From NCBI GenBank assembly GCA_051000215.1, contig JBPCON010000038.1, positions 3,797 through 67,796 on the forward strand: a stretch of DNA of 64,000 nucleotides, written 5' to 3'. Below, piece after piece: positions 1 through 5,235 of the stretch; position 1 is the first letter of the stretch; each line of letters opens with the position of its first letter. Under the pieces are notes generated by a model that saw only the letters and a program-made list of their open reading frames with translations, was not told the DNA's origin and did not search any database. A program made the translations under genes and the position numbers. This DNA comes from Acidimicrobiales bacterium. GTDB taxonomy: Bacteria > Actinomycetota > Acidimicrobiia > Acidimicrobiales > JACDCH01.

Positions 1-606
1 GCGGTGCTCCTCGCTGCGTTCGGTGGCCTCCGCCGTGGCGAGCTGCTGGCCCTCCGCCGACGCGACGTCAACGTGCTCCATCGCACGGTCTCCGTCGAGC
101 TGCAGCGCCAGCAAGGCGCCCACGGCGAGGACCTCGTCGGCCCGCCCAAGACCGCCGCTGGCCGACGCACGTTCGTCCTCCCGAGCGAGGTCGTCAAGGA
201 GATCGAGCTGCACCTCGTGCGCTTCGGCGGGGCCGGCGCCGACGGGCTCGTCTTCACCGGCGCCAAGGGCGGCTTCATCCGTCCCCACGTCCTGCAGAAG
301 CACTGGGCCGCAGCACGCATCGCCGTTGGCGTCGAGCACCTGCACTTCCACGACCTCCGCCACGTCGCCGGCACGCTCGCCGCTTCGACCGGGGCCGGCA
401 CCAAGGAGCTGATGCACCGGCTCGGCCACGTCTCGCCCCAGGCCGCGCTCCGCTACCAGCACGCAACAGCGGCGCGCGACAAGGCGATCGCCGACGGCAT
501 CGACGGGATGGTGAAGGCGGCGATGGCGGACGATCACGACCAACCCACGCCGTTCCGGGTCACCAGCGGACAGCGGCGGACGCCCGACGCGACCCCGGAT
601 TCTTAG
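1..606 (+). CDS. Tyrosine recombinase/phage integrase, C-terminal catalytic domain (5' partial)
   Basis: Catalytic motifs GLRRGE (R), PPKT (K), HFHDLRH (H-x-x-R), LGH and RYQH (Y); the frame is open to the window edge. Confidence 0.95.
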   Translation, partial: AVLLAAFGGLRRGELLALRRRDVNVLHRTVSVELQRQQGAHGEDLVGPPKTAAGRRTFVLPSEVVKEIELHLVRFGGAGADGLVFTGAKGGFIRPHVLQKHWAAARIAVGVEHLHFHDLRHVAGTLAASTGAGTKELMHRLGHVSPQAALRYQHATAARDKAIADGIDGMVKAAMADDHDQPTPFRVTSGQRRTPDATPDS

Positions 607-695
607 GTCACGTTCGGGTCACGCCAGCCGATCGAGCCTTCCCAGCCTCGGCCCCACCGGCGGAGAATCGGTGCCTGACCAGGACGTTCGAAGAG
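1..695. mobile_element. Right boundary of an integrative element/prophage inserted at the 3' end of tRNA-Gly; the element extends left of the window
   Basis: Integrase stop (606) lies 90 bp from the tRNA 3' end (696); GGTCACG direct repeats at 606-612 and 617-623. The other att site is not in the window. Confidence 0.65.
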
Positions 696-766
696 AGCGG
701 GTGACGGGAATCGAACCCGCGTTCTCAGCTTGGGAAGCTGATGTTCTGCCTCTGAACTACACCCGC
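696..766 (-). tRNA. glyU: tRNA-Gly (anticodon CCC)
   Basis: Minus strand reads GCGGGTG acceptor stem ... TCAGC-TTCCCAA-GCTGA anticodon arm ... GGTTCGATTCC T-loop ... CACCCGC plus discriminator T; CCA not encoded. Confidence 0.97.
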
Positions 767-856: not shown

Positions 857-2455
857 GTGATCCTGTCCGACCGGTCGATCCGCGACGCAGTGGCGAGCGG
901 CCGCATCGTCGTCGAACCGTTCGACCCGGCCATGGTTCAGCCGTCGTCGATCGACGTGCGCCTCGACCGATTCTTCCGTGTGTTCCTCAACCACACGATG
1001 GGTGTCATCGACGTGAAGGAGAATCTGGAGGAGCTGACCCAGCTGGTCGAGATCGTCGACGAAGACACCCCGTTCATCCTTCACCCCGGCGAGTTCGTCC
1101 TCGGCGCCACACATGAGCGCATCGCCCTGCCGAACGACATGGTCGCGCGCATCGAGGGCAAGGCCCTGGGTGTCGACACGTGGATCCCGACTCCGGATGG
1201 ATGGCGGCTCATGGGTGAGCTCGAAGCGGGCGATCTCGTCTTCCACCCTTCTGGCTATCCGACCGCTGTCGTGGCAACCAGCGACGTGATGAAGGGACGA
1301 CCTTGCCGAGAGGTCCACTTCTCCGATCGAACGCACGTGTTGGCCGATGTCGATCACCTCTGGCGCGTGCAGACGAGAGCTGATCGACGGAAGAGGTCAA
1401 CGCGGCTGCTGACCACCGGCGAGATCGAGCGCACCTTGCGGATCGGTCCTCACGAGTACAACCACCACGTGGCGATGACCTCTCCGGTCGCATACCCCGC
1501 GAGGGAGCTGCCAATCGACCCGTATGTGCTCGGTGCCTGGATCGGCGACGGCACGTCTTCGGCAGCTGAGATCACGACCATGGATCCCCCACTGCTTCGG
1601 GAGATCGAGCTTGCCGGTTACGGCGTCTCGAAGGCCTCGAAGCCGCTCGCCTATCGCATCGGCGGTGAAGGTCATTCGAGAAACCCGGTCACTGGGCGCT
1701 ACGAGCGGAACGGATCGCTCTCGAGCCGGCTGCGAGACCTCGACGTCATGGGTCACAAGCACATTCCAGACGAGTACCTGTATTCATCGATCGAGCAGCG
1801 GCAGGCTCTCCTCGAAGGTCTCATGGACACGGATGGCTACGTCGACAAGTGGGGCCGGTGCGAGCTGACCACGATCAAGGTCGGCCTCGCTGAGCAATAC
1901 CGCGAGCTTGTCGCCAGCCTCGGGTTCCGGCCCGTCGTTGCGATCAAGTCGGCGACCCTCAACGGTCGGTTCATCTGCATGAAGTACGACGTCACGTTCA
2001 CACCTGACCGCCCGGTCTTTCGCCTCGAACGCAAGCTCGTGCGCCAGAAACGCTCGGGCTGGTTCGAGCGGGGTCGAGCGATCGTCGACGTCCGCGAGAC
2101 CGAGTCGGCGCCTGTTCGTTGCATCCAGGTCGGCGCGCGAGACGGCATGTTCCTTGCCACCAGGTCGTTCATCCCGACGCACAACAGCTCGCTTGGTCGC
2201 CTCGGGCTGCTCATCCACTCCACCGCCGGGTTCATCGACCCGGGGTTCAACGGGCACATCACCCTCGAACTGTCGAACGTCGCCAACCTGCCGATCACCT
2301 TGTACCCGCGCATGAAGATCGGCCAGATCAGCTTCCACCGCATGGACACACCGGCAGACGTCCCCTACGGGACCGGCGCCCTCGGTTCGAAGTACCAGGG
2401 CCAGCGCGGCCCCACCCCGAGCCGCTACTGGGAGAACTTCTCCCGCGGCGCGTAG
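857..2455 (+). CDS. dcd: dCTP deaminase precursor containing an intein (spliced product about 191 aa)
   Basis: N-extein QPSSIDVRL...LHPGEFVLG...ARIEGK and C-extein [31 protein letters not shown]...KIGQISF...[11 protein letters not shown] rejoin into a typical actinobacterial Dcd. Confidence 0.95.
1163..2185 (+). mobile_element. Intein (341 aa, Ala1, class 3 W-C-T signature) with LAGLIDADG homing endonuclease
   Basis: Block [15 protein letters not shown], block B ADVDHLW, LAGLIDADG motifs [10 protein letters not shown] and [10 protein letters not shown], block F PVRCIQV, block G FIPTHN followed by Ser+1. Confidence 0.93.
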
Positions 2456-2456
2456 G

Positions 2457-4667
2457 TCAGTCTTCGACGGTGGGGCCGACGAGCTCTCGGGGGCCGAGCT
2501 CGGCCTCCCCCCGCTCGATGGCTTCGAGGAGGTGCATGGAGATGTCGGCGACCTTCACCTCGTCGTCATCCTTGCCAGCACCCTTCACGCCGTCGTCCAT
2601 CATGATGTAGCAGAACGGGCACGCGGTGGCGATGCGTGAAGCGCCGGTTGCGATCAGCTCGCGGGAGCGGGCGTCGTTGACCTTGGTGCCGATGGTCTCT
2701 TCCATCCACATGCGCGCGCCGCCGGCGCCGCAACACATGCCCTTGGTGCCGTTGCGCTCGGCCTCGACGACCTCGACGCCGCCGATCCGCGCGATGACGC
2801 GCCGGGGGGCCAGGTACACGTCGTTGTGGCGACCCAGGTAGCACGAGTCGTGGTACACGATGCGGTCTTCGAGGCGAGCGTTGGTCAGATCGAGCTGGCC
2901 GCTCTCGACGAGGTGGTCGAGCAGCTGGCTGTGGTGCAGCACCTCGTAGTGCCCGCCGAGCTGGGGGTACTCGTTGAGGAGCGTGTTGAAGCAGTGGGGG
3001 CACTGCGTGATGATCTTCTTCACGCCCATGCCGTTCATCGTCTCGATGTTCTGCATCGCCAGCATCTGGAAGATGTACTCGTTGCCCGAACGCCGAGCGG
3101 GGTCGCCCGTGCACATCTCGGCCGGGCCGAGGATCGCGAAGTCGATGCCAGCGCGCTGGAGCAGCTTGGCCATCGCGATGGTGACCTTCTGGTTCTTGTC
3201 GTCGAAGGAGCCGGCGCAGCCGACCCAGTAGAGGTACTCCTGCTCGAGCGGTGCTGATCCGTCGACGATGGTGACGCCCTCGACCTTCGACGTCCACGCG
3301 TCGCGGTCGGTCTGGCTCATGCCCCACGGGTTGCCTGCGTTCTCCATCGAGCGGTACGCTGTGCCGAGCTCGGTGGGGAAGTTCGACTCCATGAGCGACA
3401 GGTAGCGCCGCATGTCGAGGATCTTGTCGAGGATCTCGATGTGGACAGGACAGATCTCGTCGCACGCCTTGCACGTCGTGCACGACCACACCTCCTCGGG
3501 CGTGATCCGCTCGAACAGCGACGACGCGCCGATGGTGATCTCCGGAACCATGCCGATCGGCGGCGAGACCTGCGGGTTGCCCGTGGCTGCCATGACCTCG
3601 CCGGCCTTCAGCACGATCTCGCGCGGGTCGAGTGGCTTGCCTGTGGCGTGCGCCGGGCACACCGAGGTGCAGCGCCCGCACATGGTGCAGGCGTCGGTGT
3701 CGAGCAGCTGCTTCCACGTGAAGTCCTCGACCGTCGAGGCGCCGAACGACTCGAGCTCGGTCTCCATCAGGTTCGGCATCGGCTTCATGGCGCCCTTCGG
3801 GCGCTCGCGGTCGCGCAGGTACATGTTCAGCGGTGAGGTGAACATGTGGCGCAGCATCGTCACCGGCAACATGACGAGGAAGGCGAAGAAGCACACGACG
3901 TGCACGGCCCACCATGCCTGTTGCCAGCCGGCCGCCGAGTCGATGTTGCGGACCAGCCACGAGAGCGGGTAGCCGACGAACGACCACCGCTCATAGCCGG
4001 GCCGGCCGATCTCGGCGATGCGGAACGCTTCGGCCACGAACCCGGAGACGCCGAGCAGCAGGAACGTCCCGAGGATGGCGAGGTGCTCCGGCTTGGACTT
4101 GATGCGGATGCGGTAGGGCTTCTGCGCGTAGCGCCGCACCAGCGCCCAACCGACGCCGGCGACGAAGACGAGGCCGGCGGCGTCGGCCACCATCGAATAC
4201 GCCTGGTACACCTGCCCGTGGAGGAACTTCAGCGGCTCAGGTGCGAGGTGGTCGAGCTCGGAGATCGTGGTGACGGCGAAGAGGACGAGGAAGGCGAAGT
4301 AGATCATCGAGTGCATCACCCCCGCGGCCGGGTCGCGCAGCAACGTGCGCATGTAGACGCCGGCGCGGAAGTCGGCGACTCGCTTCTTGATCGTCTTCGA
4401 GTTCGTCGCCCGCTTGTCCGGTGCGCCTCGCTCCCAATTGCGCACGCGGAGGCTGAAGAGCACGGATCCGTACACGAACATCACGGTGAGCACGACGTAG
4501 AAGCCGAGCTTCCACGCGCCCGGGATGTTGGTGAAGACCTCGCGCTTGATCGGCGAGTCGTCTTCCCAATCGACGAGCAACGGGAAGGCCCCCGAGAACA
4601 CCGAGACGAGGCCGAGACCCACGCCCAGGCCGATGACGATGTGGTGGGGGCGGATCTTGCGAACCAT
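2457..4667 (-). CDS. Membrane Fe-S oxidoreductase (FadF/Rv0338c-EtfD/heterodisulfide-reductase-like); alternative start 4742
   Basis: N-terminal multi-TM domain, two ferredoxin motifs CTMCGRCTSVCP and CTTCKACDEICP, two cysteine-rich CCG domains (VGCAGS/CPHC; MCCGAGG/ACPFC). Confidence 0.85.
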   Translation of the reverse strand: MVRKIRPHHIVIGLGVGLGLVSVFSGAFPLLVDWEDDSPIKREVFTNIPGAWKLGFYVVLTVMFVYGSVLFSLRVRNWERGAPDKRATNSKTIKKRVADFRAGVYMRTLLRDPAAGVMHSMIYFAFLVLFAVTTISELDHLAPEPLKFLHGQVYQAYSMVADAAGLVFVAGVGWALVRRYAQKPYRIRIKSKPEHLAILGTFLLLGVSGFVAEAFRIAEIGRPGYERWSFVGYPLSWLVRNIDSAAGWQQAWWAVHVVCFFAFLVMLPVTMLRHMFTSPLNMYLRDRERPKGAMKPMPNLMETELESFGASTVEDFTWKQLLDTDACTMCGRCTSVCPAHATGKPLDPREIVLKAGEVMAATGNPQVSPPIGMVPEITIGASSLFERITPEEVWSCTTCKACDEICPVHIEILDKILDMRRYLSLMESNFPTELGTAYRSMENAGNPWGMSQTDRDAWTSKVEGVTIVDGSAPLEQEYLYWVGCAGSFDDKNQKVTIAMAKLLQRAGIDFAILGPAEMCTGDPARRSGNEYIFQMLAMQNIETMNGMGVKKIITQCPHCFNTLLNEYPQLGGHYEVLHHSQLLDHLVESGQLDLTNARLEDRIVYHDSCYLGRHNDVYLAPRRVIARIGGVEVVEAERNGTKGMCCGAGGARMWMEETIGTKVNDARSRELIATGASRIATACPFCYIMMDDGVKGAGKDDDEVKVADISMHLLEAIERGEAELGPRELVGPTVED

Positions 4668-4806
4668 CGGGGGCGAACCTACTCCCGGCTCGGATCCGGC
4701 CACGAAACCGCGAGCCGTCGACCCGACACGAACGTCAGACACGCGTCAGAGAACCGACCACGTTGCGTCATGCCCACGTCGCAGCCGAGTAACCGCCTGT
4801 CTCTAG

Positions 4807-5235
<429 letters not shown>

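Follow-up and report, generated by a model that had tools for sequence, protein, structure and literature searches.

We analyzed a 64,000-nucleotide stretch of DNA from an Acidimicrobiales bacterium (assembly GCA_051000215.1, contig JBPCON010000038.1, positions 3,797 to 67,796 of the forward strand; hereafter, the window) and focused on its dcd gene, which encodes dCTP deaminase (Dcd) and carries a long in-frame insert. We interpret this insert as a functional class 3 intein with a LAGLIDADG homing endonuclease, lodged in the phosphate-binding active-site loop of the enzyme, and put the probability of this interpretation at roughly 0.85. The gene and its parts are listed below in window positions; 6bs8, 2qxx and 1xs1 are Protein Data Bank (PDB) entries.

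857..2455, plus strand: open reading frame of the Dcd precursor, GTG start, 532 amino acids, 0 internal stops.
857..1162, plus strand: N-extein, Dcd residues 1-102, ending in ...ARIEGK; residues 2-102 match positions 1-100 of the Pfam DCD profile, and the segment aligns to residues 1-101 of Mycobacterium tuberculosis Dcd.
1163..2185, plus strand: predicted class 3 intein, 341 amino acids, Ala1...Thr339-His340-Asn341, homologous to M. smegmatis DnaBi1 and M. chimaera DnaB1, predicted fold HINT plus LAGLIDADG; it runs from Ala (GCC, 1163-1165) to Asn (AAC) and is followed by AGC TCG (Ser-Ser).
1163..1426, plus strand: N-terminal splicing (HINT) half with blocks A and B, aligned without gaps to 6bs8; Cys48 is TGC at 1304-1306, His65 is CAC at 1355-1357 and Trp67 is TGG at 1361-1363.
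1427..2056, plus strand: LAGLIDADG homing-endonuclease domain (Pfam LAGLIDADG_3 and Hom_end), borders approximate.
1523-1555, plus strand: LAGLIDADG motif 1 (intein residues 121-131), with Asp129 at 1547-1549.
1805-1840, plus strand: LAGLIDADG motif 2 (intein residues 215-226), with Asp224 at 1832-1834.
2057..2185, plus strand: C-terminal splicing half with blocks F and G, in which PVRCI...IPTHN aligns to 6bs8; Cys320, the predicted initiating nucleophile, is TGC at 2120-2122, and Thr339-His340-Asn341 lies at 2177-2185.
2186..2455, plus strand: C-extein, residues 103-191 of spliced Dcd and the stop codon, placed by the 2qxx and 1xs1 alignments; it opens with Ser+1 (AGC, 2186-2188), which is the catalytic serine, continues with SLGR (Arg107) and later contains Glu130.

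An insert interrupts dCTP deaminase

We consider the GTG start to be right because alignment to M. tuberculosis Dcd places the opening residues of the precursor (M/V-I-L-S-D-R) at residue 1 of that protein. The Pfam DCD (PF22769) and TIGR02274 models matched the precursor as two stretches, residues 2-102 and about 443-523. When positions 1163-2185 were removed in silico, the resulting 191-amino-acid Dcd matched PF22769 over its whole length (1-153/153) as a single stretch and scored 221 bits against TIGR02274 (cut-off, 92.8). Its identity to the M. tuberculosis enzyme, a bifunctional dCTP deaminase:dUTPase, was 64% (2qxx; E = 4e-76). Residues S103, R107 and E130 fell on S111, R115 and E138 of Escherichia coli Dcd in the alignment to 1xs1, with a constant offset of +8 over the stretch, and S103 fell on S102 of M. 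tuberculosis Dcd in the alignment to 2qxx. As judged from its sequence, the host protein is a dCTP deaminase, since it gives a full-length match to a curated model and has the predicted catalytic Ser, Arg and Glu. By the same alignments, the insert splits Dcd between Lys102 and the catalytic serine, and the E-values obtained for the intein and for the spliced extein exclude chance.

The insert resembles proven class 3 inteins

In a sequence search against the entire PDB, the best matches of the insert were the DnaBi1 intein of M. smegmatis (6bs8; E = 1.4e-22) and the DnaB-1 intein of M. chimaera (6rix; E = 8e-22; also 6riy), which are experimentally established class 3 inteins (PMC6195587, PMC7664689). 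Residues 1-70 aligned to 6bs8 without gaps, 36 of the 70 being identical, and Ala1, Cys48 and His65-x-Trp67 were all matched. At the other end, PVRCI...IPTHN of the Dcd intein aligned to PVRCV...VPTHN of 6bs8, which places Cys320 on the catalytic Cys118 of DnaBi1.

Class 3 inteins are recognized at the sequence level by a residue other than Cys, Ser or Thr at position 1, by Ser or Thr, rarely Cys, at position +1, and by the Trp-Cys-Thr (WCT) triplet, that is, Trp at position 12 of block B, Cys at position 4 of block F and Thr at position 5 of block G (Tori et al. 2010). The insert has every one of these features (Ala1, Trp67/Cys320/Thr339 and Ser+1) and would accordingly belong to class 3. Biochemically, class 3 splicing is marked by an obligate block F Cys and by two branched intermediates, the one at block F being thiol-labile. 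Furthermore, K-1, A1, C48, H65, W67, C320, T339, H340, N341 and S+1 were retained in 120/120 full-length homologues consisting of Dcd plus intein (61-71% identity).

We then modeled the whole precursor with AlphaFold2 (118 sequences). The mean predicted local distance difference test score (pLDDT) was 87, and most of the intein scored above 90. Foldseek comparison of this model to the PDB retrieved PI-SceI, which combines a HINT and a LAGLIDADG domain (E = 3e-16), the class 3 DnaB inteins 6bs8/6rix (target template-modeling [TM] score, 0.82-0.84) and the M. tuberculosis Dcd:dUTPase (target TM score, 0.87-0.92). The insert thus shows the sequence and structural signs of an intein: its removal restores an uninterrupted homologue, intein-free alleles exist, it has the HINT fold, and it ends in His-Asn before a nucleophilic +1 residue.

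Both Pfam LAGLIDADG_3 (PF14528) and Hom_end (PF05204) matched the central part of the intein above their cut-offs, and the catalytic aspartates were conserved (Asp129 in 116/118 homologues, Asp224 in 117/118). Mean identity to the window copy was 62% for the endonuclease, compared with 64% for the N-extein and 79% for the C-extein, the endonuclease being kept about as well as the N-extein. These matches indicate that the window copy carries a full-length, two-motif, PI-SceI-like LAGLIDADG domain with predicted endonuclease activity. The intein-bearing alleles of another genome of the same family (G009) and of a Pseudonocardiaceae metagenome-assembled genome (MAG; L022) have deletions of 37-43 amino acids between the two motifs, as expected of decay late in a homing cycle, when homing targets are exhausted.

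An earlier note on this locus, made from the DNA letters alone, is largely upheld by these results. Its description of a 341-residue insertion at 1163-2185 with Ala1, a block B Trp, a block F Cys and a terminal Thr-His-Asn was correct throughout when the codons were read directly. The proposed class 3 intein with LAGLIDADG finds support in the homology to proven class 3 inteins, the invariant signature in the 120 homologues and the predicted fold, and the two LAGLIDADG motifs it had called intact-looking match Pfam above cut-off and keep their catalytic Asp. Likewise, the note had predicted a 191-residue Dcd upon removal of the intein, with S103/R107/E130 corresponding to the E. coli catalytic residues, which the alignment to 1xs1 confirmed, and a +1 nucleophile identical to the catalytic serine, in agreement with the 2qxx and 1xs1 alignments.

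Proposed splicing pathway

By homology with the DnaB intein of mycobacteriophage Bethlehem (MP-Be) and with M. smegmatis DnaBi1, splicing would proceed in four steps. Cys320 of block F, aided by His65 and Trp67, would attack the Lys102-Ala1 bond and form a thioester branched intermediate. The N-extein would then be transferred onto the side chain of Ser+1, cyclization of Asn341 would free the intein, and an O-to-N acyl shift would re-form the native ...EGK-SSLGR... loop. Since 341 residues part Lys102 from the catalytic Ser and from Arg107, the unspliced precursor can reasonably be expected to be inactive, active Dcd arising only after splicing. The endonuclease, for its part, probably cleaves dcd alleles that lack the intein, so that the element is copied into them, and such homing would explain the patchy spread of the Dcd intein.

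We also considered a different route, in which Ser+1 attacks the N-terminal junction directly, as in class 2 inteins of the KlbA type, and Cys320 is merely structural. Ala1 would fit this route as well, being common to class 2 inteins. However, the full WCT triplet and His65 are present and invariant in the Dcd inteins, and the block F Cys is essential in the closest proven class 3 inteins: activity is lost in the C118A mutant of DnaBi1 (PMC6195587) and in the C320A and C320S mutants of the MP-Be DnaB intein (PMC2807308). We therefore regard a class 2 route as very unlikely and retain the class 3 pathway initiated by Cys320.

The Dcd intein is widespread, patchy and probably mobile

When 5.8 billion proteins were searched with a restriction on length, 3378 matches were obtained, and the best 120 of these were all Dcd precursors of about 530 amino acids. 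The named sources among these 120 were Acidimicrobiia and Gaiellaceae MAGs, the others being metagenome sequences; a Pseudonocardiaceae genome (L022) also carries a Dcd intein. Judged from these matches, the Dcd intein appears to be neither uncommon nor rare in sequence data but unrecognized, with thousands of precursors annotated as "dCTP deaminase" that are about 340 residues too long. The earlier note had taken Dcd not to be a common intein host. This view agrees with the papers searched, in which no class 3 Dcd intein was found, but not with the sequence data, given that the best 120 of the 3378 matches all carry the insert.

The note had further asked how patchy the insertion is among relatives, and we examined this in 61 related genomes. 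The intein was present in 4 of the 61, namely our own genome, G009, G022 and G042, while the uninterrupted EGKSSLGR was found in about 30 genomes of the same order. In a tree of the exteins, intein-bearing and intein-free alleles were intermixed, with 6 changes against a mean of 6.6 for shuffled labels, the sample being small and the resolution low. Additionally, the GC content at third codon positions was 0.78 in the intein, compared with 0.89 and 0.93 in the exteins. The patchy alleles, their mixing on the extein tree and this compositional gap together point to a mobile element that has been repeatedly gained and lost rather than to a fixed feature.

Many genomes of the same family (G001-G017), including G005 (96% complete) and G007 (98% complete), gave no match to either Dcd extein, the TIGR02274 model not having been applied to them. 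Much of the family thus seems to lack Dcd, and in the genomes that do have it (our own and G009), the gene bears the intein. In another reading, the insert has lost the ability to splice and persists as a dead remnant, dcd being a pseudogene. Nothing specific speaks for this reading, except that the lack of a Dcd match in some related genomes suggests that loss of the enzyme might be tolerated. Against it, the reading frame is intact, all catalytic residues of both intein and Dcd are present, and exteins and intein alike are strongly conserved across the 118-120 homologues, so that we consider this reading hardly credible. Indeed, because the exteins of intein-bearing alleles are strongly conserved, the host gene appears to be under selection and must be matured, as would be the case for a functional intein.

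Concerning possible sources of the element, no second copy of this intein type, for example in DnaB, was detected in our own genome at E<=0.01, which rules out a within-genome donor. Similarly, none of 50,697 phage records contained a phage-borne Dcd with this intein: phage matches to the intein part were terminase inteins, and the phage Dcd genes among the matches listed were uninterrupted. One of these uninterrupted genes, from Saccharomonospora phage PIS 136 (JX006077.1, 77938-78501), codes for a Dcd with 66% identity to the spliced Dcd of the window. Since actinophage dcd genes are close homologues, they could ferry alleles between hosts.

The Dcd junction copies the P-loop junction of related inteins

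To place the Dcd intein in its wider family, we searched a library of 1.84 billion cluster representatives (50% identity) and recovered 18210 matches at E<=1e-3, 4071 of them at E<=1e-30. Nearly all of the best 150 representatives shared Ala1, His-x-Trp, the block F Cys and THN; Cys48, too, was present in most of them. Where the junctions could be mapped in these 150, about two thirds were of the form ...GK↓A...THN↓S/T (arrows mark the splice junctions), the intein lying between the Walker-A Lys and the following Ser/Thr, as in terminases (GRGWGK↓T) and DnaB (ARPxMGK↓S/T). This is in agreement with the literature, in which class 3 inteins are known almost only from helicases, terminases and other ATPases, mostly at the P-loop (PMC2807308, PMC5050341), and in which Lys↓Thr is the "classic" P-loop insertion (PMC5050341). 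The Dcd junction, IEGK↓SS, reproduces the GK↓S/T junction in a protein without a P-loop. In the dUTPase superfamily, G-(K/R)-S-S is itself a loop that contacts phosphate, and for this reason the likeness of EGK↓SS to Walker A may be functional and not just local.

The Dcd inteins formed one clade with a support of 99 both in a FastTree phylogeny (149 rows) and in an IQ-TREE phylogeny (62 rows). In the former, the rows grouped with the Dcd inteins included inteins from the P-loop of DnaB-family helicases, recognized by their matches to Pfam DnaB and AAA_25; in the latter, the same helicase inteins lay deep in the P-loop side and did not neighbor the Dcd clade. Comparing the DNA of the insertion sites in Dcd and in the relatives' DnaB revealed only the short common core GGGCAA(G/A)↓A (about 7+1 bases). 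The most likely origin of the Dcd inteins would be a single jump from the P-loop of a DnaB-like helicase to the look-alike EGK↓SS loop of Dcd; we infer both the direction and the mechanism of this jump.

Several genomes of the same family (G010, G007, G003, G014 and G016; loci L014, L015, L018, L019 and L020) carry a related class 3 intein in the P-loop of DnaB, with the junctions ARPSMGK↓ALSLDT...PVRCI...IPTHN↓TAFALG, whereas our own genome has no such copy. These DnaB inteins range from 251 to 382 amino acids and, since their lengths span this range, appear to be at differing stages of endonuclease decay. A class-3-type intein with Ala1, DHLW or EHLW, CVCI and VTHN↓T was also seen in a PhoH-like ATPase at L016 (G050) and L017 (G022). 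Its site, AYMRGR↓A, has no GK↓S/T junction, and it is about 36% identical to the Dcd intein.

Genomic neighborhood

The genes flanking dcd are the following.

4-606, plus strand: 3' part of a tyrosine recombinase gene (Pfam Phage_integrase), adjoining the 3' end of tRNA-Gly(CCC).
695-766, minus strand: tRNA-Gly(CCC), directly upstream of dcd.
2457-4742, minus strand: 761-amino-acid membrane protein with a NarI-like N-terminal part, a 4Fe-4S dicluster domain and two CCG cysteine-rich domains (HdrD/DsrK-like).
4894-5235, plus strand: P-II nitrogen regulatory protein, downstream neighbor.

A single base lies between the dcd stop codon (2453-2455) and the convergent gene, which ends at 2457. The order integrase, tRNA-Gly(CCC) and intein-bearing dcd recurs in the Pseudonocardiaceae MAG (L022; 54-851, 989-1062 and 1198-2670), the integrase being 43% identical. 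The arrangement suggests that mobile elements have repeatedly used the tRNA beside dcd as an integration site; the corresponding island would be located left of the window.

Comparison with known inteins

The Dcd intein shares with DnaBi1 and M. chimaera DnaB-1 the residues Ala1, Cys48, His65-x-Trp67, PVRC(I/V) and PTHN, as well as GK at positions -2/-1 (the DnaBi1 N-extein ends in SVGK). However, the two DnaB inteins are mini-inteins of 139-145 amino acids that lack an endonuclease and sit in the Walker-A loop of a replicative helicase, whereas the Dcd intein has 341 amino acids and a full LAGLIDADG domain and sits in a metabolic enzyme of the dUTPase fold without a P-loop. The MP-Be DnaB intein is the founding member of class 3 (PMC2807308). 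Both this intein and the Dcd intein have 341 amino acids, a LAGLIDADG domain and a hydroxyl residue at +1, and, when compared by description rather than by alignment, they have an identical numbering of H65, W67, C320, T339, H340 and N341. Unlike the Dcd intein, the MP-Be intein starts with Pro1 after Gln-1, is followed by Thr+1 and resides in a phage helicase. The inteins of the terminase large subunit of cluster E mycobacteriophages (e.g., Cjw1) and those of the DnaB P-loop in the same bacterial family belong to the same intein family (34-45% identity to the Dcd intein) and have the same type of junction (GRGWGK↓A...THN↓T and ARPSMGK↓A...IPTHN↓T), but their hosts are ATPases.

An intein has previously been described in the Dcd of cyanophage vB_AphaS-CL131 and spliced experimentally (PMC6293099). 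It occupies the same active-site loop of the same host enzyme. However, it is a class 1 intein (Cys1...Asn↓Cys+1) whose endonuclease is of the HNH type, and its insertion point, after GKSTYAR↓, lies 5 residues downstream of that in the window; by the comparison made here, the two are not homologous. Reading the CL131 gene directly, we rejected the idea that both occupy the same site, as site, class and endonuclease all differ. The authors of that paper also point to Dcd inteins in one Beggiatoa and one Chloroflexi genome. In the full-text literature, we found no paper on a class 3 intein in Dcd or at this site, the site and class of the cited Beggiatoa and Chloroflexi Dcd inteins not being covered, and CL131 was the only Dcd intein found there with experimental splicing.

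Switching of class 3 LAGLIDADG inteins between exteins has been proposed for the passage from terminase to Cas4 via similar nucleotide-binding sites (bioRxiv 10.1101/2025.01.02.630785). The process that we propose is the same, namely, a move to an unrelated host at a look-alike site. The terminase and Cas4 sites share 10+2 identical bases, compared with about 7+1 bases shared between Dcd and the relatives' DnaB sites.

A possible redox or zinc switch

On top of being a functional intein, the insert could act as a conditional switch, kept because it makes Dcd maturation, and with it the supply of dUMP/dTTP, dependent on redox state or zinc. Oxidation would tie Cys320 to Cys48 through a disulfide, or else zinc would bind Cys320, and the precursor would be reversibly stalled, as in M. 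smegmatis DnaBi1. In the DnaBi1 intein, H2O2 induces a Cys48-Cys118 disulfide that reversibly blocks splicing in vivo, and every substitution of Cys48 abolishes splicing (PMC6195587); zinc is also reported to inhibit it (PMC7360933). In favor of such a switch, Cys48 and the block F Cys of the Dcd inteins align without gaps to Cys48 and Cys118 of DnaBi1 and are both present in 120/120 Dcd inteins, and a precursor stalled by an insertion at the catalytic serine should be inactive. Because both DnaBi1-equivalent cysteines are present and invariant, sensitivity of the Dcd intein to oxidants and zinc in vitro is, by analogy, quite likely.

Retention for the sake of regulation, although plausible by analogy, is far less certain, and we think it rather unlikely. 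Across hosts, most members of the wider family have Cys48, and DnaBi1 needs it for splicing itself, so that it is no specific sign of regulation. The patchy spread off the extein tree and the decay of the endonuclease in some copies are the signature of a selfish element rather than of a retained regulator, and the many same-family genomes without a Dcd match suggest that Dcd is dispensable there. Finally, the two cysteines lie 11-12 Å apart in the DnaBi1 crystal (PMC6195587). Whereas the DnaBi1 paper (PMC6195587) regards Cys48 as not conserved, the residue was present in the large majority of the best 150 family representatives.

Weight of the interpretation

Several points weigh against a functional class 3 LAGLIDADG intein that reached Dcd from a helicase P-loop. 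From the anatomy, homology, conservation, predicted fold and distribution described above, we infer that splicing occurs and in what order of steps, that the endonuclease is active, and in which direction the host was switched. The Pfam and NCBIfam intein/Hint models gave no match on the splicing domain at E<=0.01 and saw only the LAGLIDADG part, and the proposed class assignment was made from motif positions together with homology to three solved structures. As neither tree is rooted or settles the sister group of the Dcd clade, the passage from P-loop to Dcd is an argument from parsimony, and the short DNA core shared by the sites does not demonstrate a direct endonuclease-driven jump. That standard intein models miss the splicing domain is also why public records name these precursors plain "dCTP deaminase."

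Implications

The Dcd inteins represent a large, well-conserved class 3 lineage in a metabolic enzyme of a different fold, a host apparently undescribed for class 3. The EGK↓SS copy of the GK↓S/T junction offers a clean natural case for studying how inteins change host genes, and it raises the question of whether the limits on hosts are set by the chemistry of the splice junction rather than by the DNA site of the endonuclease. The Dcd intein also provides a second, independent host in which to study redox and zinc sensitivity of the DnaBi1 type, with dCTP deaminase activity as an easily assayed read-out. If the conditional switch were true, the intein would act as a post-translational valve on thymidylate precursors, the conversion of dCTP to dUTP/dUMP pausing when oxidative stress sets in or zinc is in excess and resuming once reducing conditions return. 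The logic of the DnaBi1 replication brake would then extend to nucleotide metabolism in widespread soil Actinobacteriota and Chloroflexota.

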